The notes under the pieces: generated by a model
Database searches by the model: none
Told to the model about the DNA's origin: nothing
Seen by the model: the letters and a program-made list of their open reading frames with translations, nothing else
Position numbers and translations under genes: made by a program
Shown: in pieces, positions 7,462 to 45,701 of the stretch
How positions within the stretch are numbered: position 1 is the first letter of the stretch
How the letters are laid out: the number at the start of each line of letters is the position of its first letter
Assembly: GCF_050920415.1 (NCBI RefSeq)
Contig: NZ_CP169309.1
Source of the DNA: Escherichia coli
GTDB taxonomy: Bacteria > Pseudomonadota > Gammaproteobacteria > Enterobacterales > Enterobacteriaceae
Length of the DNA stretch: 64,000 nt
Strand: one strand, 5' to 3'

Positions 7462-7508
7462 TTACGATTTGCCGATTTCGGCAGGTCTGGTCCCTAAAGG
7501 AGAGGACG

Positions 7509-9743
7509 ATGGTTGCGGTAAGAAGTGCACATATCAATAAGGCTGGTGAATTTGATCCGGAAAAATGGATCGCAAGTCTGGGTATTACCAGCCAGAAGTC
7601 GTGTGAGTGCTTAGCCGAAACCTGGGCGTATTGTCTGCAACAGACGCAGGGGCATCCGGATGCCAGTCTGTTATTGTGGCGTGGTGTTGAGATGGTGGAG
7701 ATCCTCTCGACATTAAGTATGGACATTGACACGCTGCGGGCGGCGCTGCTGTTCCCTCTGGCGGATGCCAACGTAGTTAGCGAAGATGTGCTGCGTGAGA
7801 GCGTCGGTAAGTCGGTCGTTAACCTTATTCACGGCGTGCGTGATATGGCGGCGATCCGCCAGCTGAAAGCGACGCATACCGATTCTGTTTCCTCCGAACA
7901 GGTCGATAACGTTCGCCGGATGTTATTGGCGATGGTCGATGATTTCCGCTGTGTGGTTATCAAACTGGCAGAGCGTATTGCTCATCTGCGAGAAGTGAAA
8001 GACGCGCCGGAAGATGAACGCGTACTGGCGGCAAAAGAGTGCACCAATATCTACGCGCCGTTGGCGAACCGTCTTGGGATTGGGCAACTGAAATGGGAGC
8101 TGGAAGATTACTGCTTCCGTTATCTCCACCCGACCGAATACAAACGCATCGCAAAACTGCTGCATGAACGCCGTCTCGACCGCGAACACTATATCGAAGA
8201 GTTTGTCGGTCATCTGCGCGCTGAGATGAAAGCTGAAGGCGTTAAAGCTGAAGTGTATGGTCGTCCGAAACACATCTACAGTATCTGGCGCAAAATGCAG
8301 AAAAAGAACCTCGCCTTCGATGAGCTGTTTGATGTGCGTGCGGTACGTATTGTCGCCGAGCGTTTACAGGATTGTTATGCCGCACTGGGGATAGTGCACA
8401 CTCACTATCGCCACCTGCCGGATGAGTTTGACGATTACGTTGCTAACCCGAAACCAAACGGTTATCAGTCTATTCATACCGTGGTTCTGGGGCCGGGTGG
8501 CAAAACCGTTGAGATCCAAATCCGCACCAAACAGATGCATGAAGATGCAGAGTTGGGTGTTGCTGCGCACTGGAAATATAAAGAAGGCGCGGCAGCTGGC
8601 GGCGCACGTTCGGGACATGAAGACCGAATTGCCTGGCTGCGTAAACTGATTGCGTGGCAGGAAGAGATGGCTGATTCCGGCGAAATGCTCGACGAAGTAC
8701 GCAGCCAGGTTTTTGACGACCGGGTGTATGTCTTTACGCCGAAAGGCGATGTCGTTGATTTGCCTGCGGGATCAACGCCGCTGGACTTCGCTTACCACAT
8801 CCACAGTGATGTCGGACACCGCTGCATCGGGGCAAAAATTGGCGGGCGCATTGTGCCGTTCACCTACCAGTTGCAGATGGGCGACCAGATTGAAATTATC
8901 ACCCAGAAACAGCCGAACCCCAGCCGTGACTGGTTAAACCCAAACCTCGGTTACGTCACAACCAGCCGTGGGCGTTCGAAAATTCACGCCTGGTTCCGTA
9001 AACAGGATCGTGACAAAAATATTCTGGCAGGGCGGCAAATCCTTGACGACGAGCTGGAACATCTGGGGATCAGCCTGAAAGAAGCAGAAAAACATCTGCT
9101 GCCGCGTTACAACTTCAATGATGTCGACGAGTTGTTAGCAGCGATTGGTGGCGGGGATATCCGTCTCAATCAGATGGTGAACTTCCTGCAATCGCAATTT
9201 AATAAGCCGAGTGCCGAAGAGCAGGATGCCGCCGCGCTGAAGCAACTTCAGCAAAAAAGCTATACGCCGCAAAACCGCAGTAAAGATAACGGTCGTGTGG
9301 TGGTAGAAGGTGTCGGCAACCTGATGCACCACATCGCGCGCTGCTGTCAGCCGATTCCTGGAGATGAGATTGTCGGTTTCATTACCCAGGGGCGCGGTAT
9401 TTCAGTACACCGCGCCGATTGCGAACAACTGGCGGAACTGCGCTCCCATGCGCCAGAACGCATTGTTGACGCGGTATGGGGCGAGAGTTACTCCGCCGGA
9501 TATTCGCTGGTGGTCCGCGTGGTGGCTAATGATCGTAGTGGGTTGTTACGTGATATCACGACCATTCTCGCCAACGAGAAGGTGAACGTGCTTGGCGTTG
9601 CCAGCCGTAGCGACACCAAACAGCAACTGGCAACCATCGACATGACTATTGAGATTTACAACCTGCAAGTGCTGGGCCGCGTGCTGGGTAAACTCAACCA
9701 GGTGCCGGATGTTATCGACGCGCGTCGACTGCATGGGAATTAA
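7509..9743 (+). CDS. relA: GTP pyrophosphokinase ((p)ppGpp synthetase I)
   Basis: 744-aa ORF; RelA/SpoT synthetase domain, TGS and ACT C-terminal domains. Confidence 0.95.
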   Translation: MVAVRSAHINKAGEFDPEKWIASLGITSQKSCECLAETWAYCLQQTQGHPDASLLLWRGVEMVEILSTLSMDIDTLRAALLFPLADANVVSEDVLRESVGKSVVNLIHGVRDMAAIRQLKATHTDSVSSEQVDNVRRMLLAMVDDFRCVVIKLAERIAHLREVKDAPEDERVLAAKECTNIYAPLANRLGIGQLKWELEDYCFRYLHPTEYKRIAKLLHERRLDREHYIEEFVGHLRAEMKAEGVKAEVYGRPKHIYSIWRKMQKKNLAFDELFDVRAVRIVAERLQDCYAALGIVHTHYRHLPDEFDDYVANPKPNGYQSIHTVVLGPGGKTVEIQIRTKQMHEDAELGVAAHWKYKEGAAAGGARSGHEDRIAWLRKLIAWQEEMADSGEMLDEVRSQVFDDRVYVFTPKGDVVDLPAGSTPLDFAYHIHSDVGHRCIGAKIGGRIVPFTYQLQMGDQIEIITQKQPNPSRDWLNPNLGYVTTSRGRSKIHAWFRKQDRDKNILAGRQILDDELEHLGISLKEAEKHLLPRYNFNDVDELLAAIGGGDIRLNQMVNFLQSQFNKPSAEEQDAAALKQLQQKSYTPQNRSKDNGRVVVEGVGNLMHHIARCCQPIPGDEIVGFITQGRGISVHRADCEQLAELRSHAPERIVDAVWGESYSAGYSLVVRVVANDRSGLLRDITTILANEKVNVLGVASRSDTKQQLATIDMTIEIYNLQVLGRVLGKLNQVPDVIDARRLHGN

Positions 9744-9752
9744 TCATGCATA

Positions 9753-9790
9753 GCTGGATATGGCATCAGCCGTATCCAGCGGTATCTTTT
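9753..9790 (+). terminator. hairpin downstream of relA (possible terminator)
   Basis: GCTGGATA-12 nt loop-TATCCAGC followed by ggtatctttt; the T tract is weak. Confidence 0.4.
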
Positions 9791-9838
9791 ACTCGAAGGT
9801 ATTACACCTGACAGACCCGCAATTTTCAGGACATTCTA

Positions 9839-10630
9839 ATGAATCAAATCGACCGTTTGCTCACTATTATGCAGCGCCTGCGCGACCCGGAAAACGGCTG
9901 CCCGTGGGATAAAGAGCAGACATTTGCCACCATTGCACCTTACACCCTTGAAGAAACCTACGAGGTGCTGGACGCCATTGCCCGTGAAGATTTTGACGAT
10001 CTGCGCGGTGAACTCGGCGATCTGCTGTTCCAGGTGGTGTTTTACGCACAAATGGCCCAGGAAGAAGGGCGCTTTGACTTTAATGATATTTGCGCTGCGA
10101 TTAGCGATAAATTAGAGCGTCGCCATCCGCATGTTTTTGCTGACAGTTCTGCCGAAAACAGTCGTGAAGTGCTTGCCCGTTGGGAGCAAATCAAAACCGA
10201 AGAGCGCGCGCAGAAAGCGCAGCATTCGGCGCTGGACGATATTCCTCGTAGTTTACCGGCTTTAATGCGTGCGCAAAAAATCCAGAAACGTTGCGCCAAC
10301 GTTGGCTTCGATTGGACGACGCTTGGTCCGGTAGTCGATAAAGTCTACGAAGAGATCGACGAGGTGATGTACGAGGCGCGGCAGGCTGTTGTCGACCAGG
10401 CTAAACTGGAGGATGAAATGGGTGACCTGCTGTTTGCCACGGTCAACATGGCCCGCCATTTAGGGACAAAAGCAGAGATTGCACTACAAAAAGCCAATGA
10501 AAAATTCGAGCGCCGTTTTCGCGAAGTGGAGCGTATTGTTGCCGCGCGTGGACTGGAAATGACAGGTGTAGACCTCGAAACAATGGAAGAAGTCTGGCAA
10601 CAGGTAAAACGGCAGGAAATTGATCTCTAA
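9839..10630 (+). CDS. mazG: nucleoside triphosphate pyrophosphohydrolase MazG
   Basis: 263-aa ORF; tandem MazG domains with EExYE-type motifs (LEETYEVLDAI, YEEIDEVMYE). Confidence 0.9.
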   Translation: MNQIDRLLTIMQRLRDPENGCPWDKEQTFATIAPYTLEETYEVLDAIAREDFDDLRGELGDLLFQVVFYAQMAQEEGRFDFNDICAAISDKLERRHPHVFADSSAENSREVLARWEQIKTEERAQKAQHSALDDIPRSLPALMRAQKIQKRCANVGFDWTTLGPVVDKVYEEIDEVMYEARQAVVDQAKLEDEMGDLLFATVNMARHLGTKAEIALQKANEKFERRFREVERIVAARGLEMTGVDLETMEEVWQQVKRQEIDL

Positions 10631-10842
10631 GGGAATTACGTGGTCAAGCGCGATTTGTGTCATTTTTTAAATGACAAGCGCTTGATTTGCGTCAAAAACA
10701 TTTACCCCAAAGGGGCTATTTTCTCACTCCTGATTTCAATGGTGAGCTGGCGAAGAGGAGGGATAATGAAAGTTTGTGGCACAGGTCATGTTCGGGTATA
10801 CTGCTTTCCCGTCCTGGTTATTCCATCGTCTTTTCAACCTAA

Positions 10843-13881: not shown

Positions 13882-13900
13882 GCCTGACTTTATCTGATTT

Positions 13901-13931
13901 AAAAATGCCAGCCTTCGGGCTGGCATTTTTT
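13901..13931. terminator. bidirectional rho-independent terminator between eno and the convergent TPM gene
   Basis: aaaaaTGCCAGCC-ttcg-GGCTGGCAtttttt. Confidence 0.65.
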
Positions 13932-13940
13932 ATGGTTGAG

Positions 13941-14813
13941 TTACCAGCGACCGGAAGCACCGCCACCGCCAGAAGAACCGTCACCTCCGCTAAATCCGCC
14001 ACCACTTGAGCCGCCACCAGAACCGCCGCTGTCTGAATGATAACTTCTACCTGATGCTTTTTTCTGTGGGACACATAACCAGGTAAAGACCATAATGATG
14101 GTGAAAGTAAAAAAGAAGGAAAATACAGCAATGGAAAAAGTTTGATCGGAGAACAGGAATAAATCTATAAGATAGACTGTTGAAATACAAACACTGCTTT
14201 TAAATGCCCGACAAAAATTATTGCCTTGATGAAAAAACCAGAAAGGGAAGAACATCACTGCAAATACCCAAAAAATAGCAAAGTAGTAATGATCACTGGA
14301 AGACGCTGATTCACTTTCTGAAGGATTAGACGAATATTGGTGTTGTGAAGTGAGTTGGTTATTCAAAGCGATTATAGCTAACTCTCATCCCTTAGCTAAT
14401 TTTTGTTTTTTAAAGGCGGGTATCATGATGTTACGGATGATATTGCCAGCCAGAGCATCGGTTACCTTTTCTTCCAGCCCATAACCTACCTGAATGCGGA
14501 CAGTTCGATCCGACCAGGCAACAACGATCAGTATCCCATCATTACGTTTGGCATCTCCTAAACGCCAATTGTCAAAAACCCTTGTAGCATATTGTTCAAT
14601 AGAATCGCCTCCGGTGGATGGCACTATTAATACAGCGACCTGTGCCCGTGTTTTTTGTGTAATATCCTGCAGCTGTTGTGTCAGTGATTGTTGTTCAGAC
14701 GTGCTTAAGGTACCAGTAATATCGGTCACCTGTTGGCGCAGCTCCGGCACAGCAATTTGCTGGGCAAGCACAGGAAGGCACCATAAAGTGAGTAGAAAAA
14801 GGATTATACGCAT
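13941..14813 (-). pseudogene. YgcG-like TPM-domain membrane protein, copy 3, interrupted by an in-frame TGA
   Basis: ORFs 14385..14825 (signal peptide + TPM domain) and 13941..14366 (TM helices + Gly/Ser tail ...GGGGASGRW) are in the same frame, separated only by TGA at 14385..14387 and 6 sense codons; the downstream ORF begins with TTG, not ATG. Confidence 0.6.
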
Positions 14814-14818
14814 AACGA

Positions 14819-15966
14819 TCACCAACGGTCGGATGAACCGCCACCGCCAGAAGAACCGCCGCCACCGCGGAAAGAGTTTTTCGACGAAGAACGAGAATGA
14901 GCATTACGATTCCCCGTTTTCTTGTTGCTTTTATGCCCTGATCCCAGTTTAAGATTGCCAGTAAATTTGGCCACAATGATCAGCAGAACGATGCCAGCAA
15001 TGGTTATTGGGCCGATAAAATGATCAATTAGCCCAATAATTGTTGAGATGAACGCAATATCTTTATTACTGGCGAATACCAGGCACCATCCCACAACAAT
15101 TATCAGCAGCACGACAAACAATGAATTTCGTCCTGATTCACGAACCTGCGGAGCCTTCTTTTGTTTTTTCACTTTAGCGTTTTTATTTTGGGGGGCCAGC
15201 ATCATAGGAAATGTGCGGCATATATTAAAAACTACCGCGAGACGCTGCCAGCAGATTGCTGCGAAAAATAAACTAAAACAAACGACCGATACCCGCCGAA
15301 TGATGACATCGTCCTGAAAGGAGAAAAACCAGACCATAGGAGTAATCATCGATATCATCCATATGCCAGGCCCGGGACGGCTGGTAAATCGCCAGAGGAC
15401 AACGATGGCAACGATCATCAGTAATGTCCAGGCAAGACATGGCAGCGAGCGTTGCGGATTAGCAAACAGATGATTGGCTAAAGCATCCAAAGGGCTAAGA
15501 TTCGCTTTTATATAGGTAAACTGTGCGATGCCTTCAATTCCCTGCGTTAACCCGGAGAAGAGATTATTTTTTTGAATTCCGGTTGCATATGGTAATGAAC
15601 AATTTGCGCAGCTTGTTCCGGTGGCAGCATCTCTTCCAGTCCATGCCCAATCTTCATTGACGCCAGCCCTTCCGGCCAAACGACGAGAATTAAGATACCT
15701 TCGCCGTACCGCTTCTCTCCAACAGGTTTCCAGTGATATAACCCGTAGCTTTGCGAGGCTGCAAGTTTAATGTCTTTACCCCCAGTGGTCAGCGTTACCA
15801 ACACGGCAACCTGAAAGTGGTTTTGCTGCTCGAGAGTCTGTAATTGTTGAGTTAAAGCAGTTTGTTCTTCTGTCGTTAATGTCCCGGTTAAGTCAGTTAC
15901 TGAAGGCAATTGTTCAGCGAATGCCTGGAAACCACATAGCATCAGAAGTAAGAGAAAAATACGCAT
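14819..15966 (-). pseudogene. YgcG-like TPM-domain membrane protein, copy 2, frame-shifted at an A7 run
   Basis: ORF 15547..15966 (signal + TPM domain) and ORF 14819..15679 (5 TM helices + tail ...[15 protein letters not shown]) overlap in different frames; similarity to the intact paralog continues across the shift (LFSGLTQGIEGI vs LAGGLQKGISDI); switch point is the T7/A7 tract at 15567..15573. Confidence 0.6.
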
Positions 15967-15980
15967 TTCAATTCCTTTTG

Positions 15981-16919
15981 TTACCAGCGCCCGGAGGCGC
16001 CACCGCCGCCAGATGAACCGCCGCCGCCGCTGAAATTATCATTGTCAAAAGAGGATGAAGAGGAAGATGACGACGATGATGAAGAACGCCTGGAGGCCGA
16101 GTTACTTCTTTCGTAATGTGACGGTCGGTTGGCACTGCGCATCGAATCCCGAACCTTTTTGCCGAAGGGGGTAAAAGCGATGGCGACAGCCAGGAACGGT
16201 GTGGCGAAGCAGAGTAATGTTGCGAGTACTCCCCAGCTTCCGCTGAAACCTGCTATAGGTAAAACAAAGGCCAGTACAATAGCTGTGAAGCAAATTAGTC
16301 CCAGCGTTTTGACATATCCTCTGGCGGAAATAAAGGTCAGTACTATTGCCCAGACTAACAAAGCCCACCAACCGCTAAAGGGCAAAGGGTGATCGGTCGG
16401 TGTTATCGCTTCTAAATTATTCCCCGTCAGACGATTATCAATATCGCTTATTCCCTTTTGCAAGCCGCCAGCAAGGTCGCCATTTTTAAATGCCGGAATA
16501 ATACTGTTGCGAATAATTTTCCCGGACTGCGCATCCGTAATAACGCCTTCCAGTCCGTAACCGATTTCAATACGCACGGTATGATCCTGCCAGGCGACTA
16601 ACAGTAGAACGCCATCATCGCGGTCTTTATCTCCGGGTTTCCAGCTATCGAATACCCGCGTTGCGTACTGCTCGATGGTTTCATCGCCTGTGGTTTCAAC
16701 CACTAACACGACCAGTTGTGCGTGGCTTTTTTGCGTCAGCTCTTTAATCTGATTGGTCAACGTATTTACTTCATCGTTCGTCAATTTGCCGGTTAAGTCA
16801 TTCACATACCTGGGTGATTCAGGCACTGGAATTTGTATGGCAAACACAGATGAACAAAAGAAAGCCATAAGGAAGATAAAATTTCGCACAGGACTTCCTC
16901 GCTTAATGAGCATTAGCAT
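15981..16919 (-). CDS. YgcG-family TPM-domain membrane protein, intact copy (312 aa)
   Basis: signal peptide, TPM domain, 3 TM helices, poly-Ser tract, C-terminal [15 protein letters not shown]; probably the ygcG ortholog but which copy is orthologous cannot be decided from sequence alone. Confidence 0.8.
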   Translation of the reverse strand: MLMLIKRGSPVRNFIFLMAFFCSSVFAIQIPVPESPRYVNDLTGKLTNDEVNTLTNQIKELTQKSHAQLVVLVVETTGDETIEQYATRVFDSWKPGDKDRDDGVLLLVAWQDHTVRIEIGYGLEGVITDAQSGKIIRNSIIPAFKNGDLAGGLQKGISDIDNRLTGNNLEAITPTDHPLPFSGWWALLVWAIVLTFISARGYVKTLGLICFTAIVLAFVLPIAGFSGSWGVLATLLCFATPFLAVAIAFTPFGKKVRDSMRSANRPSHYERSNSASRRSSSSSSSSSSSSFDNDNFSGGGGSSGGGGASGRW

Positions 16920-17505
16920 TCTGGCTAAAATCTATTGTTGGGGTTTTACTCACAGCGGCGACATCATCCGGTAAATAATTTTTCTTCGGTGTGTAATCCA
17001 TGACTTTTGCGGTTAACACTGCGGGGAATTTGCGGATAGTGACATTATATTGTTCGATGGCTTTAATATATCTTCCTCGCGCAACGGCAATTCGATTTTC
17101 ACTTCCTTCGAGCTGTACCATCAAATTTTGATAGAGTTCCTGGGCCTTTAGCTCAGGGTAACGTTCACTAATTATCGTTAACTGACCGAGAGTGCGAGAC
17201 ACCTGCGCCTGGGCCTGTTGCCAGACTTGTAATTTTTGTTCATCCCCCGGAGTTTGCTGAAGATCGCTACTGGCGCGATTAGCCTGACTACGTGCCAATG
17301 TTACGGCTTCCAGTACCTCTTGTTCATGGCTGGAATAACCTTTAATACTAGCGACAAGATTAGGAATAAGATCGGCGCGACGTTGATATTGATTTAATAC
17401 CTCAGACCAGGAAGCGTTAACCTGCTCATCATAGGTTTGAATATCGTTATATCCACAGCCTGATAAATTGAAAATAAATATAATTACGATGAATATTCTG
17501 AGCAT
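16903..17505 (-). CDS. LemA-family lipoprotein
   Basis: 200-aa ORF with lipobox (FNLSGCGY) and LemA-like coiled region; its 3' end overlaps the start of the TPM gene (translational coupling). Confidence 0.8.
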   Translation of the reverse strand: MLRIFIVIIFIFNLSGCGYNDIQTYDEQVNASWSEVLNQYQRRADLIPNLVASIKGYSSHEQEVLEAVTLARSQANRASSDLQQTPGDEQKLQVWQQAQAQVSRTLGQLTIISERYPELKAQELYQNLMVQLEGSENRIAVARGRYIKAIEQYNVTIRKFPAVLTAKVMDYTPKKNYLPDDVAAVSKTPTIDFSQNANAH

Positions 17506-17677: not shown

Positions 17678-18349
17678 ATGCAGTACCCGATTAACGAGAT
17701 GTTCCAGACCCTGCAAGGTGAGGGTTACTTTACCGGCGTCCCCGCCATTTTTATTCGTTTACAGGGATGCCCGGTCGGCTGTGCCTGGTGCGACACCAAA
17801 CACACCTGGGAAAAGCTTGAGGATCGGGAAGTCTCCCTTTTCAGCATTCTGGCGAAGACCAAAGAGAGTGATAAGTGGGGGGCGGCGAGCAGTGAAGATT
17901 TGCTGGCTGTCATTGGTCGTCAGGGATACACCGCGCGGCATGTGGTGATTACGGGTGGTGAGCCTTGCATTCATGATTTGCTGCCACTGACTGACCTGCT
18001 CGAAAAGAACGGTTTTAGCTGCCAGATCGAAACCAGCGGTACTCATGAAGTACGCTGCACGCCGAATACCTGGGTTACCGTATCGCCAAAGCTGAACATG
18101 CGCGGCGGCTATGAAGTGTTGTCACAGGCACTGGAGCGAGCCAACGAAATCAAGCATCCAGTGGGACGCGTACGTGATATTGAAGCACTGGATGAACTAC
18201 TGGCAACGCTGACCGATGATAAACCACGAGTCATTGCACTGCAGCCAATTAGCCAGAAGGACGATGCCACACGTTTGTGCATTGAAACCTGTATTGCGCG
18301 TAACTGGCGTTTATCGATGCAAACACATAAATATTTAAATATTGCCTGA
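17678..18349 (+). CDS. queE: 7-carboxy-7-deazaguanine synthase (radical SAM)
   Basis: 223-aa ORF; Cys motif CPVGCAWC; MQYPINEMFQTLQGEGYFTG. Confidence 0.92.
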   Translation: MQYPINEMFQTLQGEGYFTGVPAIFIRLQGCPVGCAWCDTKHTWEKLEDREVSLFSILAKTKESDKWGAASSEDLLAVIGRQGYTARHVVITGGEPCIHDLLPLTDLLEKNGFSCQIETSGTHEVRCTPNTWVTVSPKLNMRGGYEVLSQALERANEIKHPVGRVRDIEALDELLATLTDDKPRVIALQPISQKDDATRLCIETCIARNWRLSMQTHKYLNIA

Positions 18350-18539: not shown

Positions 18540-18687
18540 GGTATAGAGTTATTTTAAATATTTACTTTTTTAATCAATGGATTAAGTGTTCTTTAACATA
18601 ATGGATGTGTTGTTTGTGTGATCCTGTAAAGTTGGTAGATTGTGACTGGCTTAAAAAATCATTAATTAATAATAGGTTATGTTTAGA
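18540..18687 (+). promoter_or_regulatory. putative leader of the queE-proximal CRISPR array
   Basis: AT-rich sequence immediately 5' of the first repeat, same polarity as the repeats. Confidence 0.4.
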
Positions 18688-18899
18688 GAGTTCCCCACGT
18701 CAGCGGGGATAAACCGCTATACGAAGTTATTAGGTCCGAAGAGGAGTTGAGTTCCCCACGTCAGCGGGGATAAACCGTTTACGTGTTATCGCGCACCGGC
18801 GACGGTGTGGAGTTCCCCGCGCCAGCGGGGATAAACCGATTCAGCAAATAGCGAATTTCATAAATATGATGTGTTCCCCGCGCCAGCGGGGATAAACCA
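18688..18899 (+). CRISPR. type I-E CRISPR array, 4 repeats / 3 spacers (ygcE-queE array)
   Basis: 29-bp repeats at 18688, 18749, 18810, 18871 with 32-bp spacers (period 61); repeats 1-2 are the variant GAGTTCCCCaCGtCAGCGGGGATAAACCG, repeat 3 is canonical, repeat 4 is degenerate (GtG..., terminal a). Confidence 0.9.
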
Positions 18900-19352: not shown

Positions 19353-19490
19353 ATATTCCTTGTAAAAACAGGGATAAACCGAACTAGTTAAAGTTTTTAT
19401 TATGTTCCCTGCATCAGCGGGGATAAACCGGACTTGTTATCATTTTTTAAGTTGTCGAACTTATGTTCCCCGCGCCAGCGGGGATAACCA
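19353..19490 (+). CRISPR. degenerate CRISPR remnant (2-3 decayed repeats)
   Basis: repeat-like units ending at 19381, 19430 and 19490 (atGTTCCCtGCatCAGCGGGGATAAACCG; atGTTCCCCGCGCCAGCGGGGATAACCA) with one 32-bp spacer 19431..19462. Confidence 0.6.
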
Positions 19491-19536
19491 TTCAGGTATG
19501 TTCAGGCCGGGCAGTTTCCCGCCCGGTCTTCCTCAC

Positions 19537-35757: not shown

Positions 35758-38424
35758 ATGGAACCTTTTAAATATATATGTCATTACTGGGGGAAATCCT
35801 CAAAAAGCCTGACGAAAGGAAATGATATTCATCTGTTGATTTATCATTGCCTGGATGTTGCAGCTGTTGCAGATTGCTGGTGGGATCAATCAGTCGTACT
35901 ACAAAATGCTTTTTGCCGAAATGAAATGCTATCAAAACAGAAGGTGAAAGCCTGGCTGTTATTTTTCATTGCCCTTCATGATATCGGAAAGTTTGATATA
36001 CGATTCCAATATAAATCAGCAGAAAGTTGGCTGAAATTAAATCCTGCAACGTCATCACTTAATGGTCCATCAACACAAATGTGCCGTAAATTTAATCATG
36101 GTGCAGCCGGTCTGTATTGGTTTAACCAGGATTCACTTTCAGAGCAATCTCCCGGGGATTTTTTCAGTTTTTTTGATGCCGCTCCTCATCCTTATGAGTC
36201 CTGGTTTCCTTGGGTAGAGGCCGTTACAGGACATCATGGTTTTATATTACATTCCCAGGATCAAGATAAGTCGCGTTGGGAAATGCCAGCTTCTCTGGCA
36301 TCTTATGCTGCGCAAGATAAACAGGCTCGTGAGGAGTGGATATCTGTACTCGAAGCATTATTTTTAACACCAGCCGGGTTATCTATAAACGATATACCAC
36401 CTGATTGTTCATCATTGTTAGCAGGTTTTTGCTCGCTTGCTGACTGGTTAGGTTCCTGGACCACAACGGATACCTTTCTATTCAAAGAAGATGCACCTTC
36501 AGGCATACAAGCGCTAAGAAAATATTTTCAGGATAGACAACAGGATGCGTGTCGGGTACTGGAGTTGAGTGGCCTTGTATCAAATAAGCGTAGTTATGAC
36601 GGCGTACATGCCTTACTGGACAATGGCTATCAACCAAGACAATTACAGGTGTTGGTTGATGCTCTTCCTACAGCTCCCGGGCTGACGGTGATTGAGGCAC
36701 CTACGGGATCAGGTAAAACCGAAACAGCGCTGGCCTATGCCTGGAAACTTATTGACCAACAACTTGCGGATAGTGTTATTTTTGCCCTCCCTACACAAGC
36801 TACTGCAAATGCAATGCTCAGCAGAATGGAAGCGAACGCGAGCCGTTTATTTACCTCCCCAAATCTTATTCTTGCTCATGGTAATTCACGTTTTAACCAC
36901 CTTTTTCAATCAATAAAATCACGCGCATTTACTGAGCAGGGGCAAGAAGAAGCGTGGGTTCAGTGTTGCCAATGGTTGTCACAAAGCAATAAGAAAGTGT
37001 TTCTTGGGCAAATAGGAGTTTGCACGATTGATCAGGTGTTGATATCGGTATTGCCAGTTAAACACCGCTTTATCCGTGGTTTGGGAATTGGTCGAAGTGT
37101 TTTAATTGTTGATGAAGTTCATGCTTACGACACGTATATGAACGGCTTGCTGGAGGCTGTGCTCAAGGCTCAGGCTGATGTGGGGGGGAGTGTTATTCTT
37201 CTTTCCGCAACTCTACCAATGAAACAAAAACAGAAACTTCTGGATACTTATGGTCTGCATACAGATCCAGAGGAAAATAACTCCGCATATCCACTCATTA
37301 ACTGGCGAGGTGTGAATGGTGCGCAACGTTTTGATCTGTTAGCTCATCCAGAACAACTCCCGCCCCGCTTTTCAATTCAGCTAGAACCTATTTATTTAGC
37401 TGACATGTTACCTGACCTTACGATGTTAGAGCGAATGATCGCAGCGGCAAACGCGGGTGCACAAGTCTGTCTTATTTGCAATTTGGTTGACGTTGCACAA
37501 GTATGCTACCAACGGCTAAAGGAGCTAAATAACACGCAAGTAGATATAGATTTGTTTCATGCACGCTTTACGCTGAACGATCGTCGAGAAAAAGAGAATC
37601 GTGTTATTAGCGATTTCGGAAAAAATGGGGATCGAAATGTTGGACGAATACTTGTCGCCACGCAAGTCGTGGAACAATCGCTCGACGTTGATTTTGATTG
37701 GTTAATTACCCAGCATTGTCCCGCAGATTTGCTTTTCCAACGATTGGGCCGTTTACATCGTCATCATCGCAAATATCGTCCCGCTGGTTTTGAGATTCCT
37801 GTTGCCACCATTTTGCTGCCTGATGGCGAGGGTTACGGACGACATGAGCATATTTATAGCAACGTTAGAGTCATGTGGCGGACGCAGCAACATATTGAGG
37901 AACTTAATGGAGCATCCTTATTTTTCCCTGATGCTTACCGGCAATGGCTGGATAGCATTTACGATGATGCGGAAATGGATGAGCCAGAATGGGTCGGCAA
38001 TGGCATGGATAAATTTGAAAGCGCCGAGTGTGAAAAAAGGTTCAAGGCTCGTAAGGTTCTGCAGTGGGCTGAAGAATATAGCTTGCAGGATAACGATGAA
38101 ACCATTCTTGCGGTAACGAGGGATGGGGAAATGAGCCTGCCATTATTGCCTTATGTACAAACGTCTTCAGGTAAACAACTGCTCGATGGCCAGGTCTACG
38201 AGGACCTAAGTCATGAACAGCAGTATGAGGTGTTAGCACTTAATCGCGTCAATGTACCCTTCACTTGGAAACGTAGTTTTTCTGAAGTAGTAGATGAAGA
38301 TGGGTTACTTTGGCTGGAAGGGAAACAGAATCAGGATGGATGGATCTGGCAGGGTAATAATATTGTTATTACCTACACTCGGGATGAAGGGATGACCAGA
38401 GTCATCCCTGCAAATCCCAAATAA
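35758..38424 (+). CDS. cas3: type I-E Cas3 HD nuclease / SF2 helicase
   Basis: 888-aa ORF; HD motif (LHDIGKF), Walker A APTGSGKTE, DEVH box (IVDEVHAYD). Confidence 0.96.
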   Translation: MEPFKYICHYWGKSSKSLTKGNDIHLLIYHCLDVAAVADCWWDQSVVLQNAFCRNEMLSKQKVKAWLLFFIALHDIGKFDIRFQYKSAESWLKLNPATSSLNGPSTQMCRKFNHGAAGLYWFNQDSLSEQSPGDFFSFFDAAPHPYESWFPWVEAVTGHHGFILHSQDQDKSRWEMPASLASYAAQDKQAREEWISVLEALFLTPAGLSINDIPPDCSSLLAGFCSLADWLGSWTTTDTFLFKEDAPSGIQALRKYFQDRQQDACRVLELSGLVSNKRSYDGVHALLDNGYQPRQLQVLVDALPTAPGLTVIEAPTGSGKTETALAYAWKLIDQQLADSVIFALPTQATANAMLSRMEANASRLFTSPNLILAHGNSRFNHLFQSIKSRAFTEQGQEEAWVQCCQWLSQSNKKVFLGQIGVCTIDQVLISVLPVKHRFIRGLGIGRSVLIVDEVHAYDTYMNGLLEAVLKAQADVGGSVILLSATLPMKQKQKLLDTYGLHTDPEENNSAYPLINWRGVNGAQRFDLLAHPEQLPPRFSIQLEPIYLADMLPDLTMLERMIAAANAGAQVCLICNLVDVAQVCYQRLKELNNTQVDIDLFHARFTLNDRREKENRVISDFGKNGDRNVGRILVATQVVEQSLDVDFDWLITQHCPADLLFQRLGRLHRHHRKYRPAGFEIPVATILLPDGEGYGRHEHIYSNVRVMWRTQQHIEELNGASLFFPDAYRQWLDSIYDDAEMDEPEWVGNGMDKFESAECEKRFKARKVLQWAEEYSLQDNDETILAVTRDGEMSLPLLPYVQTSSGKQLLDGQVYEDLSHEQQYEVLALNRVNVPFTWKRSFSEVVDEDGLLWLEGKQNQDGWIWQGNNIVITYTRDEGMTRVIPANPK

Positions 38425-38838
38425 CTTCGGGAATGATTGGTATCAATGACGATAACAAGACCAATAACGGTTTATCCCTACTTAAGTAGGGAAGGTGCAC
38501 AATGTACATCTTCTTTTAATTTCCCGGTATGAGATTTTATATTCACAGTATGAATATTTTATGTAATAAAATTTATGGTAATTATTATAACTAAAAATTT
38601 CTTTGATAATAAAACGAATAACTTGCAGATTTGAAATGCATGCATTATTGTCTTTAAACAATTCAACACATCTTAATATATGCATAGGTTAATTGTATTA
38701 AACCAATGAATATATTTTTGCAGTGAATGTGATTATTGAATTAATTACGCCGTATTTTTTCTTTGTTTTTACCGATAACGGAAGTGTGCCGACGTATAGA
38801 AATGCAGGAGAAATGTCGGAGCATATGAAGGAGAACAA
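38425..38838. promoter_or_regulatory. cas3-casA intergenic region holding the casA operon promoter (H-NS/LeuO-controlled in K-12)
   Basis: very AT-rich 414-bp spacer directly upstream of casA; the regulatory role is from established K-12 knowledge, not read from the sequence. Confidence 0.55.
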
Positions 38839-40347
38839 ATGAATTTGCTTATTGATAACTGGATCCCTGTACGCCCGCGAAACGGGGGGAAAGTCCAAAT
38901 CCTAAATCTGCAATCGCTATACTGCAGTAGAGATCAGTGGCGGTTAAGTTTGCCCCGTGACGATATGGAACTGGCCGCTTTAGCACTGCTGGTTTGCATT
39001 GCACAAATTATCGCCCCGGCAAAAGATGACGTTGAATTTCGACATCGCATAATGAATCCGCTCACTGAAGATGAGTTTCAACGACTCATCGCGCCGTGGA
39101 TAGATATGTTCTACCTTAATCACGCAGAACATCCCTTTATGCAGACCAAAGGTGTCAAAGCAAATGATGTGACTCCAATGGAAAAACTATTGGCAGGGGT
39201 AAGCGGCGCGACGAATTGTGCATTTGTCAATCAACCGGGGCAGGGTGAAGCATTATGTGGTGGATGCACTGCGATTGCGTTATTCAACCAGGCGAATCAG
39301 GCACCTGGTTTTGGTGGTGGCTTTAAAAGCGGTTTACGTGGAGGAACACCTATAACCACCTTCGTATGTGGGATCGATCTTCGCTCGACGGTGTTACTCA
39401 ATGTCCTCACAATACCTCGTCTTCAAAAACAATTTCCCAATGAATCAAATACGGAAAACCAACCTACCTGGATTAAGCCTGTCAAGCCCAATGAATCTGT
39501 GCCAGCTTCGTCAATTGGGTTTGTCCGTGGCTTATTCTGGCAACCAGCGCATATTGAATTATGCGATCCCATTGGGATTGGTAAATGTTCTTGCTGTGGA
39601 CAGGAAAGCAATTTGCGTTATACAGGTTTTCTTAAGGAAAAATTTACCTTTACAGTTAATGGGCTATGGCCCCATCCGCATTCCCCTTGTCTGGTAACAG
39701 TCAAGAAAGGGGAGGTTGAGGAAAAATTTCTTGCTTTCACCACCTCCGCACCATCATGGACGCAAATCAGCCGAGTTGTGGTAGATAAGATTATTCAAAA
39801 TGAAAATGGAAATCGCGTGGCGGCGGTTGTGAATCAATTCAGAAATATTGCGCCGCAAAGTCCTCTTGAATTGATTATGGGGGGATATCGTAATAATCAA
39901 GCATCTATTCTTGAACGACGTCATGATGTGCTGATGTTTAATCAGGGGTGGCAACAATACGGCAATGTTATAAACGAAATAGTGACTGTTGGTTTGGGGT
40001 ATAAAACAGCCTTACGCAAGGCGTTATATACTTTTGTGGAAGGTATTAAAAATAAAGACTTTAAAGGGGCTGGAGTCTCTGTTCATGAGACTGCAGAAAG
40101 GCATTTCTATCGACAGAGTGAATTATTAATTCCCGATGTATTGGCGAATGTTAATTTTTCCCAGGCTGATGAGGTAATAGCTGATTTACGAGACAAACTT
40201 CATCAATTGTGTGAAATGCTATTTAATCAATCTGTAGCTCCCTATGCACATCATCCTAAATTAATAAGCACATTAGCACTCGCCCGCGCCACGCTATACA
40301 AACATTTACGGGAGTTAAAACCGCAAGGAGGGCCATCAAATGGCTGA
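38839..40347 (+). CDS. casA: Cascade large subunit Cse1
   Basis: 502-aa ORF, first gene of casABCDE-cas1-cas2. Confidence 0.95.
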   Translation: MNLLIDNWIPVRPRNGGKVQILNLQSLYCSRDQWRLSLPRDDMELAALALLVCIAQIIAPAKDDVEFRHRIMNPLTEDEFQRLIAPWIDMFYLNHAEHPFMQTKGVKANDVTPMEKLLAGVSGATNCAFVNQPGQGEALCGGCTAIALFNQANQAPGFGGGFKSGLRGGTPITTFVCGIDLRSTVLLNVLTIPRLQKQFPNESNTENQPTWIKPVKPNESVPASSIGFVRGLFWQPAHIELCDPIGIGKCSCCGQESNLRYTGFLKEKFTFTVNGLWPHPHSPCLVTVKKGEVEEKFLAFTTSAPSWTQISRVVVDKIIQNENGNRVAAVVNQFRNIAPQSPLELIMGGYRNNQASILERRHDVLMFNQGWQQYGNVINEIVTVGLGYKTALRKALYTFVEGIKNKDFKGAGVSVHETAERHFYRQSELLIPDVLANVNFSQADEVIADLRDKLHQLCEMLFNQSVAPYAHHPKLISTLALARATLYKHLRELKPQGGPSNG

Positions 40348-40822
40348 TGAAATTGATGCAATGGCTTTATATCGAGCCTGGCAACAGCTGGATAACGGAG
40401 CATGTGCGCAAATTAGACGTGTTTCAGAACCTGATGATTTACGCGATATCCCTGCGTTTTATCGGTTGGTGCAACCTTTTGGTTGGGAAAACCTGCGTCA
40501 CCAACAGGCTCTTTTGCGCATGGTGTTTTGCCTGAGCGCAGGAAAGAATGTCATCCGACATCAGGATAAAAAACCGGAGCAAACAATAGGTATCTCGTTG
40601 GGAAGAGCTTTAGCCAATAGTGGAAGAATTAACGAGCGCCGTATCTTCCAATTGATTCGGGCTGACAGAACAGCCGATATGGTCCAGTTACGTCGATTGC
40701 TTGCTCACGCCGAACCCGTACTTGACTGGTCATTAATGGCCCGGATGTTGACCTGGTGGGGAAAGCGCGAACGCCAGCAACTTCTGGAAGATTTTGTATT
40801 GACCACAAACAAAAATGCGTAA
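40340..40822 (+). CDS. casB: Cascade small subunit Cse2
   Basis: 160-aa ORF overlapping casA by 8 bp. Confidence 0.95.
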   Translation: MADEIDAMALYRAWQQLDNGACAQIRRVSEPDDLRDIPAFYRLVQPFGWENLRHQQALLRMVFCLSAGKNVIRHQDKKPEQTIGISLGRALANSGRINERRIFQLIRADRTADMVQLRRLLAHAEPVLDWSLMARMLTWWGKRERQQLLEDFVLTTNKNA

Positions 40823-40834
40823 GGAAACCTCTCA

Positions 40835-41926
40835 ATGTCTAATTTTATTAATATCCATGTCCTGATCTCTCACAGCCCTTCATGTCTGAACCGCGACGAT
40901 ATGAACATGCAGAAAGACGCTATTTTCGGCGGGAAAAGGCGAGTAAGAATTTCAAGTCAAAGCCTTAAACGTGCGATGCGTAAAAGTGATTATTACGCAC
41001 AAAATATTGGTGAATCCAGTCTCAGAACAATTCATCTTGCACAATTACGTGATGTTCTTCGGCAAAAACTTGGTGAACGTTTTGAGCAAAAAATCATCGA
41101 TAAGACATTAGCTCTGCTCTCCGGTAAATCAGTTGATGAAGCTGAAAAGATTTCTGCCGATGCGGTTACTCCCTGGGTTGTGGGAGAAATAGCCTGGTTC
41201 TGTGAGCAGGTTGCAAAAGCAGAGGCAGATAATCTGGATGATAAAAAGCTGCTCAAAATTCTTAAGGAAGATATTGCCGCTATCCGTGTGAATTTACAGC
41301 AGGGGGTTGATATTGCGCTTAGCGGAAGAATGGCAACCAGCGGCATGATGAGTGAGTTGGGAAAAGTTGATGGTGCAATGTCCATTGCGCACGCGATCAC
41401 GACCCATCAGGTTGATTCTGATATTGACTGGTTCACCGCCGTAGATGATTTACAGGAACAAGGTTCTGCACATCTGGGAACACAGGAATTTTCATCGGGT
41501 GTTTTTTATCGTTATGCCAACATTAACCTTGCTCAACTTCAGGAAAATTTAGGCGGCGCCTCCTGGGAGCAGGCTCTGGAAATTGCAACCCATGTTGTTC
41601 ATATGCTGGCAACAGAGGTCCCTGGAGCAAAACAGCGTACTTATGCCGCTTTTAACCCTGCGGAGATGGTAATGGTTAATTTCTCCGATATGCCACTTTC
41701 TATGGCAAATGCTTTTGAAAAAGCGGTGAAAGCGAAAGATGGCTTTTTGCAACCGTCTATACAGGCGTTTAATCAATATTGGGATCGCGTTGCGAATGGC
41801 TATGGTCTGAACGGAGCTGCTGCGCAATTTAGCTTGTCTGACATGGACCCAATTACTGCTCAGGTTAAACAAATGCCTACTTTAGAACAGTTAAAATCCT
41901 GGGTTCGTAATAATGGCGAGGCGTGA
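40835..41926 (+). CDS. casC: Cascade backbone subunit Cas7e
   Basis: 363-aa ORF; [22 protein letters not shown]. Confidence 0.95.
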
Positions 41927-41928
41927 AC

Positions 41929-42603
41929 ATGAGATCTTATTTGATCTTGCGGCTTGCTGGGCCAATGCAAGCCTGGGGGCTGCCGACCTTTGAAGGAACG
42001 CGACCTACCGGAAGATTTCCGACCCGAAGCGGGTTATTAGGGCTACTCGGGGCTTGTCTTGGGATCCAACGTGATGATACTTCTTCATTACAGGTGTTAT
42101 CAGAGAGTGTGCAATTTGCAGTGCGTTGCGATGAACTCATTCTTGACGATCGTCGTGTGTCTGTAACGGGGTTGCGTGATTACCATACAGTCCTTGGAGC
42201 GCGAGAAGATTACCGTGGTTTGAAAAGTCATGAAACGATTCAAACATGGCGCGAATATTTATGTGATGCCTCCTTTACCGTCGCTATCTGGTTAACACCA
42301 CAGGCAACGATGGTTATGTCAGAACTTGAAAAAGCAGTATTAAAGCCTCGGTATACACCGTATCTGGGGCGGAGGAGTTGTCCGCTAACACAACCGCTTT
42401 TTCTCGGGACATGTCAGGCGTCGGATCCTCAGAAGGCGCTATTAAATTATGAGCCCGTTGGCGGCGATATTTATAGTGAGGAATCAGTTGACGGGCATCA
42501 TTTAAAATTTACGGTGCGCGACGAACCGATGATCACCTTACCTCGACAATTTGCTTCCCGGGAATGGTATGTGATTAAAGGAGGTATGGATGTATCTCAG
42601 TAA
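41929..42603 (+). CDS. casD: Cascade subunit Cas5e
   Basis: ORF 41923..42603; start taken at MRSYLILRLAGPMQAWG. Confidence 0.92.
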   Translation: MRSYLILRLAGPMQAWGLPTFEGTRPTGRFPTRSGLLGLLGACLGIQRDDTSSLQVLSESVQFAVRCDELILDDRRVSVTGLRDYHTVLGAREDYRGLKSHETIQTWREYLCDASFTVAIWLTPQATMVMSELEKAVLKPRYTPYLGRRSCPLTQPLFLGTCQASDPQKALLNYEPVGGDIYSEESVDGHHLKFTVRDEPMITLPRQFASREWYVIKGGMDVSQ

Positions 42604-43189
42604 AATCATCATTGCCAGGGCCTGTAGCAGGGATCTTTACCAACTTCACCAGGGATTATGGCATTTATTTCCAAATAGACCAGATGCTGCTCGTGATTTT
42701 CTTTTTCATGTTGAGAAGCGAAACACACCAGAAGGCTGTCATGTTTTATTGCAGTCAGCGCAAATGCCTGTTTCAACTGCCGTTGCGACAGTCATTAAAA
42801 CTAAACAGGTTGAATTTCAACTTCAGGTTGGTGTTCCACTCTATTTTCGGCTTCGGGCAAATCCGATCAAAACTATTCTCGACAATCAAAAGCGTCTGGA
42901 CAGTAAAGGGAATATTAAACGCTGTCGGGTTCCGTTAATAAAAGAAGCAGAACAAATCGCGTGGTTGCAACGTAAATTGGGCAATGCGGCGCGCGTTGAA
43001 GATGTGCATCCCATATCGGAACGGCCACAGTATTTTTCTGGGGAAGGTAAAAATGGAAAAATCCAAACGGTTTGCTTTGAAGGTGTGCTCACCGTCAATG
43101 ACGCATCAGCGTTAATGGATCTTATACAGCAAGGTATTGGGCCAGCCAAATCGATGGGATGTGGTTTGCTATCTTTGGCTCCACTGTGA
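42590..43189 (+). CDS. casE: Cas6e crRNA endoribonuclease
   Basis: 199-aa ORF; MYLSKIIIARA... Confidence 0.95.
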   Translation: MYLSKIIIARACSRDLYQLHQGLWHLFPNRPDAARDFLFHVEKRNTPEGCHVLLQSAQMPVSTAVATVIKTKQVEFQLQVGVPLYFRLRANPIKTILDNQKRLDSKGNIKRCRVPLIKEAEQIAWLQRKLGNAARVEDVHPISERPQYFSGEGKNGKIQTVCFEGVLTVNDASALMDLIQQGIGPAKSMGCGLLSLAPL

Positions 43190-43204
43190 TTGAGGTGTAA
43201 TAAA

Positions 43205-44408
<1,204 letters not shown>

Positions 44409-44513: not shown

Positions 44514-45701
44514 GAGTTCCCCGCGCCAGCGGGGATAAACCGCTCGCGTATACTCTCTGCCAACGTCTCCAGATGAGTTCCCCGCGCCAGCGGGGATAAA
44601 CCGGCGGGATTATCGGCACTGACGTCGGCGCTGTGGAGTTCCCCGCGCCAGCGGGGATAAACCGGGTCGCTTCCATATATGAACCTTGAGGATTAGGAGT
44701 TCCCCGCGCCAGCGGGGATAAACCGGTTCCATGCACTGCCCGCAGTGTCAGCCGTACGAGTTCCCCGCGCCAGCGGGGATAAACCGGTAAATCATACGTT
44801 GGCATCAGTATTTTTCTCGAGTTCCCCGCGCCAGCGGGGATAAACCGACTCCGCGCCATTTGAGAATTCTCAGTTCTGCGAGTTCCCCGCGCCAGCGGGG
44901 ATAAACCGCTACTGCTGTCAGACGGCAGGGCAAAACAGCGGAGTTCCCCGCGCCAGCGGGGATAAACCGGACGTGCGGATGCTGTTTCTGGTTTTACCTC
45001 CGAGTTCCCCGCGCCAGCGGGGATAAACCGTTTTTTCTCAGCGTCTGGCAGAGCTAATCGCCGAGTTCCCCGCGCCAGCGGGGATAAACCGGTGTCAAAT
45101 TTCATGTAATTGATGATCCAGCTGAGTTCCCCGCGCCAGCGGGGATAAACCGGGTATTTCTCGTTAACACGGTCGTATCAAAACGAGTTCCCCGCGCCAG
45201 CGGGGATAAACCGAGGGGTTGCAACCATAGCCCTTAGTTGATTGCGAGTTCCCCGCGCCAGCGGGGATAAACCGCCAGTGGATTTTAATAAACTCTCCAG
45301 CGAGCAGAGTTCCCCGCGCCAGCGGGGATAAACCGTTCGCCACGTCAGGCGTGATTTCCTGCACTGAGAGTTCCCCGCGCCAGCGGGGATAAACAGGGCG
45401 CGTCTGCGCCCGCTAGGACTCGTGTCAAGAGTTCCCCGCGCCAGCGGGGATAAACCGGGAGTTCAGACATAGGTGGAATGATGGACTACGAGTTCCCCGC
45501 GTTAGCGGGGATAAACCGCCCGGTAGCCAGGTTTGCAACGCCTGAACCGAGAGTTCCCCGCGCCAGCAGGGATAAATCGGCAACGACGGTGAGATTTCAC
45601 GCCTGACGCTGGTGTTCCCCGCATCAGCGGGGATAAACCGGGCGCACTGGATGCGATGATGGATATCACTTAGAATTCCCCGCCCCTGCGGTAGAACTCC
45701 C
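44514..45701 (+). CRISPR. type I-E CRISPR array, 20 repeats / 19 spacers
   Basis: 29-bp repeat GAGTTCCCCGCGCCAGCGGGGATAAACCG at 44514 and every 61 bp to 45673; 32-bp spacers; variants in repeats 15 (AAACaG), 17 (GCGttAGC), 18, 19 and a degenerate terminal repeat. Confidence 0.97.

Follow-up and report, generated by a model that had tools for sequence, protein, structure and literature searches.

The window analysed here, a stretch of 64,000 nucleotides of Escherichia coli DNA, contains a short type I-E CRISPR array at 18688-18899, in which four 29-nt repeats (starting at 18688, 18749, 18810 and 18871) and three 32-nt spacers follow one another with a 61-nt period. The repeats agree with the E. 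coli I-E consensus, and a pattern search of the whole window returned 25 repeat matches where 0 were expected. With queE on one side and ygcE on the other, the array has the chromosomal setting of K-12 CRISPR-II, whose homologue it is. Its leader, about 120 nt of which are near-identical to the K-12 CRISPR-II leader, ends with ...AATCATTAATTAATAATAGGTTATGTTTAGA immediately 5' of repeat 1; in a promoter consensus scan of this leader, sites were no more numerous than in shuffled sequence. A remnant array follows about 530 bp downstream, and a complete K-12-type cas3-casABCDE-cas1-cas2 operon (35758-44408) lies in the same window. The features are listed below.

17678-18349, plus strand: queE, which borders the array at its leader end (coordinates taken from the annotation of strain MFDS1022581 through a colinear 99.9% alignment).
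18567-18687, plus strand: AT-rich leader of the queE-side array (CRISPR-II / CRISPR2.3).
18688-18716, plus strand: repeat 1, variant GAGTTCCCCACGTCAGCGGGGATAAACCG, with two substitutions relative to the consensus.
18717-18748, plus strand: spacer 1, a P1-family lox arm with the adjacent immC-side flank, assigned by sequence matches to phage and plasmid records.
18749-18777, plus strand: repeat 2, identical in sequence to repeat 1.
18778-18899, plus strand: spacer 2, consensus repeat 3, spacer 3 and a degenerate terminal repeat 4, all 100% identical in MFDS1022581.
19402-19491, plus strand: two-repeat, one-spacer remnant array by ygcE (CRISPR2.2-type); the same remnant is present in K-12.
35758-38424, plus strand: cas3 (NCBIfam NF007248, 1612.8 bits against a cut-off of 569); 96.7% identical to K-12 Cas3, of the same length and free of internal stops.
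38839-43189, plus strand: casA, casB, casC, casD and casE (Cascade), above the curated NCBIfam cut-offs; full length and 95.6-98.1% identical to K-12.
43205-44408, plus strand: cas1 and cas2 (adaptation module), above the cut-offs of TIGR03638 and TIGR01873; 98.7% and 97.9% identical to K-12.
44514-45640, plus strand: CRISPR-I array (iap side) of 19 repeats and 18 spacers, from the repeat listing; iap follows.

All eight Cas proteins thus score above curated NCBIfam cut-offs, have K-12 lengths, contain no internal stops and share 95.6-98.7% identity with their K-12 counterparts. For this reason, what is known experimentally of the K-12 system applies directly.

An earlier note, made from the letters of the window, had placed a leader-proximal spacer at 18717-18748 in the queE-side array and proposed that it resembles the loxP site of phage P1. 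The position and the sequence were as it described: spacer 1 is the 32-mer CTATACGAAGTTATTAGGTCCGAAGAGGAGTT. We compared it with 50,697 phage records (2.3 Gb), where 20 P1-family records matched over the full length with E values from 2e-8 to 1e-6. Three of these matched at 32/32 and the remaining P1-family records at 31/32, including reference P1, P7, phiW39, RCS47 and SJ46; the other phage matches were just two weak partial ones to a cyanophage (E = 3). Among 72,556 plasmids (7.3 Gb), 702 records matched; 184 were identical to the 32-mer and 471 agreed with it at 31/32. Nearly all of the 702 were from Escherichia or Salmonella. A 32-mer scan of GTDB species representatives gave two matches, an 83-kb contig of Escherichia sp. 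and a small contig in a metagenome-assembled genome labelled as Bacillota.

Reading the targets confirmed that the first 14 nt of the spacer are the last base of the loxP core plus one 13-bp arm, as had been proposed, and that the P1 flank given in the earlier note, TAGGTCTGAAGAGGAGTT, is correct for reference P1, with a match of 31/32. The earlier note would have regarded a resemblance confined to the 14-nt arm as coincidental; P1-family genomes match over all 32 nt, and the full-length matches found by BLAST in phages and plasmids are stronger than it had foreseen. Reference P1 departs from the spacer at a single base, spacer position 21, where it has T instead of C. In P1 the protospacer occupies NC_005856 94766-94797 on the minus strand; this stretch is a lox half in the annotation of the record and shares bases with the -10 element of the promoter P4cre. 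In plasmid p91 the lox site reads ATAACTTCGTATAATGTATG, CTATACGAAGTTAT and TAGGTCCGAAGAGGAGTT in succession, and the protospacer there stands in the context ...GATAACTTCGTATAATGTATG, CTATACGAAGTTATTAGGTCCGAAGAGGAGTT, TACG. The source DNA therefore comprises the last base of the loxP core, one Cre-binding arm of 13 bp and 18 bp of the immC-side flank.

Short matches do arise by chance, and this prior is all that speaks for a coincidental resemblance to loxP. Against it, the best matches are 32/32, all but the weakest are P1-family lox sites, and the correct protospacer-adjacent motif (PAM) precedes every target read. Given that the E values of the 32/32 matches are 2e-8 in phage DNA (2.3 Gb) and 6e-8 in plasmid DNA (7.3 Gb), chance is excluded.

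We also considered whether the lox-derived bases at 18717-18730 represent a cryptic lox site in the chromosome. A functional lox consists of two inverted 13-bp arms around an 8-bp core; the whole 64-kb window holds one arm, and the bases upstream of it belong to the CRISPR repeat. This candidate was rejected.

The three bases directly 5' of the protospacer, read on the strand identical to the spacer, are ATG in P1, p91, SJ46 and three more divergent plasmids, that is, in all six targets read, and they belong to the loxP core. This bears out the ATG PAM of the earlier note, which had called it one tolerated by type I-E systems; ATG and AAG are in fact the consensus interference-proficient PAMs of the E. 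coli I-E system (PMC6568314). The target variants in these six differ at positions 10, 15, 16, 21, 24 and 28, leaving seed positions 1-8 unchanged in all. With positions 1-5 and 7-8 taken as the seed of an interference-competent protospacer, complementarity includes the seed and reaches 32/32 or 31/32 in most matches, and an interference-proficient PAM stands directly 5' of the protospacer. Acquisition is another matter. Diez-Villasenor et al. described CTT (equivalent to AAG) as the motif at which the K-12 variant acquires spacers, and CWT as that of the other variant (PMC3737337), and K-12-type Cas1-Cas2 seldom chooses ATG in adaptation (PMC6568314). AAG is by far its preferred motif, with ATG a minority choice (PMC3737337; PMC6568314). 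These data suggest that the ATG found here is functional for interference and a minority choice for acquisition, and the latter counts against the explanation that we favour, namely capture of the spacer from a natural P1-like element.

Could the source have been a laboratory construct, either a Cre-lox vector or cassette or an engineered strain? Many laboratory cassettes carry loxP together with the first native flank bases, and the string CTATACGAAGTTATTAGGTC appears in 12 papers, on yeast, mouse or mammalian-cell constructs among the matches listed. The spacer, however, matches all 18 native flank bases, where cassettes share loxP and only the first few, and its C at position 21 is present in 184 natural plasmids and not in reference P1, the source of laboratory loxP. 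The host, moreover, is closely related to a food isolate. We regard a laboratory origin as extremely improbable; a loxP cassette in particular is ruled out as the source by the match across the native 18-nt flank and by the natural C variant.

Two landmarks near the protospacer in P1 may be recorded here. On the top strand of P1, a Chi octamer (GCTGGTGG) is found at NC_005856 94692-94699, 66 bp beyond the protospacer, in the orientation that would stop RecBCD coming from the lox/cre side, and the pac cleavage site at P1 90804-90813 is about 4 kb away. As a speculation, these positions would fit RecBCD-dependent capture of a naive spacer near a DNA end.

The two repeats that flank spacer 1 differ from the others. 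Repeats 1 and 2 are identical 29-mers of a rare two-base variant, CCCCACGTCAGCGGGG in place of CCCCGCGCCAGCGGGG, and repeat 3 is the consensus. Integration by Cas1-Cas2 duplicates the first, leader-proximal repeat. As both repeats share the variant, it must have been present before spacer 1 was inserted and was copied by the insertion; evidently, spacer integration still worked at the variant repeat.

The closest complete E. coli genome, that of MFDS1022581, is 99.7-99.9% identical to the window as a whole and, as BLAST reports it, 100.0% identical over 9,121 bp in the cas operon region. Its queE-side array is the same base for base except that one 61-bp unit, a repeat plus spacer 1, is missing, and it has a single variant repeat, in the first position. 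The combination of spacers 2 and 3 with the variant repeat is common only to these two strains among the complete E. coli genomes searched. A unit missing in MFDS1022581 and a variant shared by two repeats are what polarised insertion leaves behind when it duplicates the repeat next to the leader. On the simpler reading of these sequences, the one-unit difference would be the footprint of a Cas1-Cas2 insertion at the leader end, with MFDS1022581 displaying the predicted pre-insertion state.

The same difference could have arisen in the opposite direction, if the spacer 1 unit is older and recombination between the two variant repeats removed it from MFDS1022581. The identical 29-mers would lend themselves to a precise deletion of 61 bp, and a direct spacer listing shows that spacers 4-8 of CRISPR-I (44726-45001) are missing in MFDS1022581; the three spacers next to the leader and the ten distal ones are the same in both strains. 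The gap is most simply read as an internal deletion between repeats in MFDS1022581, which would show that such deletions occur in its lineage. On the other hand, a state in which the variant repeat is followed directly by spacer 2 must have preceded the insertion in any case, and MFDS1022581 has exactly this arrangement, so that retention is simpler than reversion. Spacer 1 was also found in no other array, either among 5,426 complete genomes or, by an exact junction scan, in metagenome contigs. We therefore consider loss in MFDS1022581 unlikely and gain in the present strain the better account.

Several other features of the sister strain were recorded. MFDS1022581 has plasmids of 242 kb and 57 kb, and the replication genes in the first 3 kb of each are not P1-like. 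In its annotation, relA is followed directly by mazG at a distance of about 95 bp (window ~7500-10650 after transfer of the coordinates); the mazEF toxin-antitoxin pair, located between these two genes in K-12, appears to be absent from this lineage. Between eno and queE (window ~13900-17500), the same annotation has a LemA-family gene and three TPM-domain pseudogenes (with an internal stop, a frameshift and a truncation), at the place where K-12 has ygcG.

Taken together, the data suggest, with a probability of roughly 0.88, that spacer 1 is a genuine type I-E spacer, which Cas1-Cas2 took from a P1-like phage-plasmid (genus Punavirus) occurring in nature and placed at the leader end, with the first repeat duplicated in the process. 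That such a phage-plasmid was once met and adapted against, in line with the past immunity suggested in the earlier note, is thus well supported by the 32-nt match, the ATG PAM, the intact leader and the complete cas operon. Spacer 1 is an ordinary but clean record of such an encounter.

In the window's three arrays, spacer 1 is the only one of 22 spacers with a phage match or a credible plasmid match. None of the other 21 matched the phage collection, the 18 CRISPR-I spacers included, so there is no sign of the multiple P1 spacers that primed adaptation would leave. Against plasmids, these 21 spacers gave three mislabelled chromosomes that carry the same spacer and one 30/32 match to an Enterobacter megaplasmid. 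The latter involves CRISPR-I spacer 15 (45397-45428) and a hypothetical gene on a 607-kb plasmid of Enterobacter hormaechei (E = 6e-3, a borderline value); it is the only other spacer that matched anything outside E. coli arrays.

Rare as a spacer, the sequence is frequent as a target. A repeat-spacer-repeat query of 5,426 complete E. coli genomes found no other array with spacer 1, the best full-length match being 83% and covering repeats only. The repeat/spacer junction was likewise absent, as an exact string, from 241 M metagenome records. Nor was the spacer found in one supplementary file of PMC10910852. The protospacer, by contrast, was present in 695 of the 5,426 complete genomes (~13%), at 699 places, of which 687 were on plasmids and 12 on chromosome records. 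None of these 12 is a CRISPR array; presumably they are integrated or co-assembled P1-like elements. According to PMC10910852, E. coli spacers match P1, RCS47 and SJ46 more often than any other known phages.

From the established biology of the K-12 I-E system, we infer how the spacer might act in expression, crRNA processing and actual immunity. The array would be transcribed from the leader and cut by CasE within the repeats, and Cascade would carry the spacer 1 crRNA. Cascade would then recognise ATG in the lox core, and pairing of the crRNA with the complementary strand would open an R-loop over the arm and the flank. Cas3, once recruited, would nick the displaced strand and degrade it 3' to 5' towards cra and cre, which lie upstream of the PAM in p91, so that incoming or resident P1-like DNA would be destroyed. 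The mismatch to reference-type P1 at position 21 lies outside the seed and should be tolerated.

Whether spacer 1 protects the cell today is a separate question from its P1 origin. It could be a historical relic, either because H-NS silences the cas operon or because the variant repeats block processing by CasE. The variant substitutions, G to A and C to T (GCGCC to ACGTC), place an A-C mismatch in the CasE hairpin stem. The predicted hairpin weakens accordingly from -15.1 kcal/mol for the consensus to -9.7 kcal/mol for the variant, and the 61-nt spacer 1 crRNA is predicted to favour an alternative fold that sequesters the 3' hairpin. On these models, processing of the spacer 1 crRNA by CasE may be inefficient. 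The cas operon, moreover, is of the K-12 type by its 95.6-98.7% protein identity; H-NS is established to silence the K-12 operon under laboratory conditions (see also PMC4782391), and the K-12-type system is silent in the laboratory (PMC10910852). The lack of any known phage target for the remaining 21 spacers also fits a slow-moving system. Against this, adaptation took place at the variant repeat, which argues that at least Cas1-Cas2 was active in the recent history of the lineage; the interference genes are all intact, and PAM and seed are perfect. On balance, we hold a present-day relic to be a real possibility, at somewhat less than even odds.

The position of the target suggests a further effect, of which we are rather doubtful. 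Both the PAM and the complete seed fall within loxP, on bases of its core and on the core-proximal half of one Cre-binding arm. As the phage-plasmid uses Cre-lox to cyclise and to resolve dimers, point mutations in PAM or seed, the usual way to escape, would also damage this function, which could make the immunity unusually durable. Separately, Cascade bound at lox and at the -10 element of P4cre could, even with limiting Cas3, block Cre binding and cre transcription and so destabilise the P1 plasmid in a CRISPRi-like manner. Both parts of this proposal seem to us improbable.

Accounts of the type I-E system of E. coli usually present it as silent, its arrays changing slowly and their targets being mostly unknown. 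The present array is a clean counter-example, in that one of 22 spacers has an unambiguous, common and clinically relevant target. A near-isogenic sister without the spacer, a variant repeat that was copied, and a PAM and seed within a recombination site add modest extra value. The strain pair could serve as a natural system for asking whether a wild K-12-type CRISPR-Cas restricts phage-plasmids, and could also address the function of the variant repeat and the limits on escape when a recombination site is targeted.

Compared with known systems, the spacer is new, its kind and the system that holds it are already well known, and no new kind of biology is involved. The array resembles K-12 CRISPR-II (ygcE-queE; CRISPR2.3 of Diez-Villasenor) in chromosomal position, in its near-identical leader, in its 29-nt repeat and 32-nt spacers and in the remnant downstream. 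It differs in that its spacers are others, three here and six in K-12, and in that its first two repeats carry the hairpin-weakening G to A and C to T changes. The cas operon is like the K-12 I-E operon in order, gene lengths and 95.6-98.7% protein identity. With loxP, the chromosome shares at 18717-18730 only 14 of 34 bp, one arm and one core base; the second arm and the 8-bp core are missing, and the stretch cannot support Cre recombination. Finally, spacer 1 agrees in host species, CRISPR type and target family with the natural E. coli spacers against P1, RCS47 and SJ46 described in PMC10910852. Its distinguishing feature is that it sits on lox itself, with its PAM and seed inside a functional recombination site.
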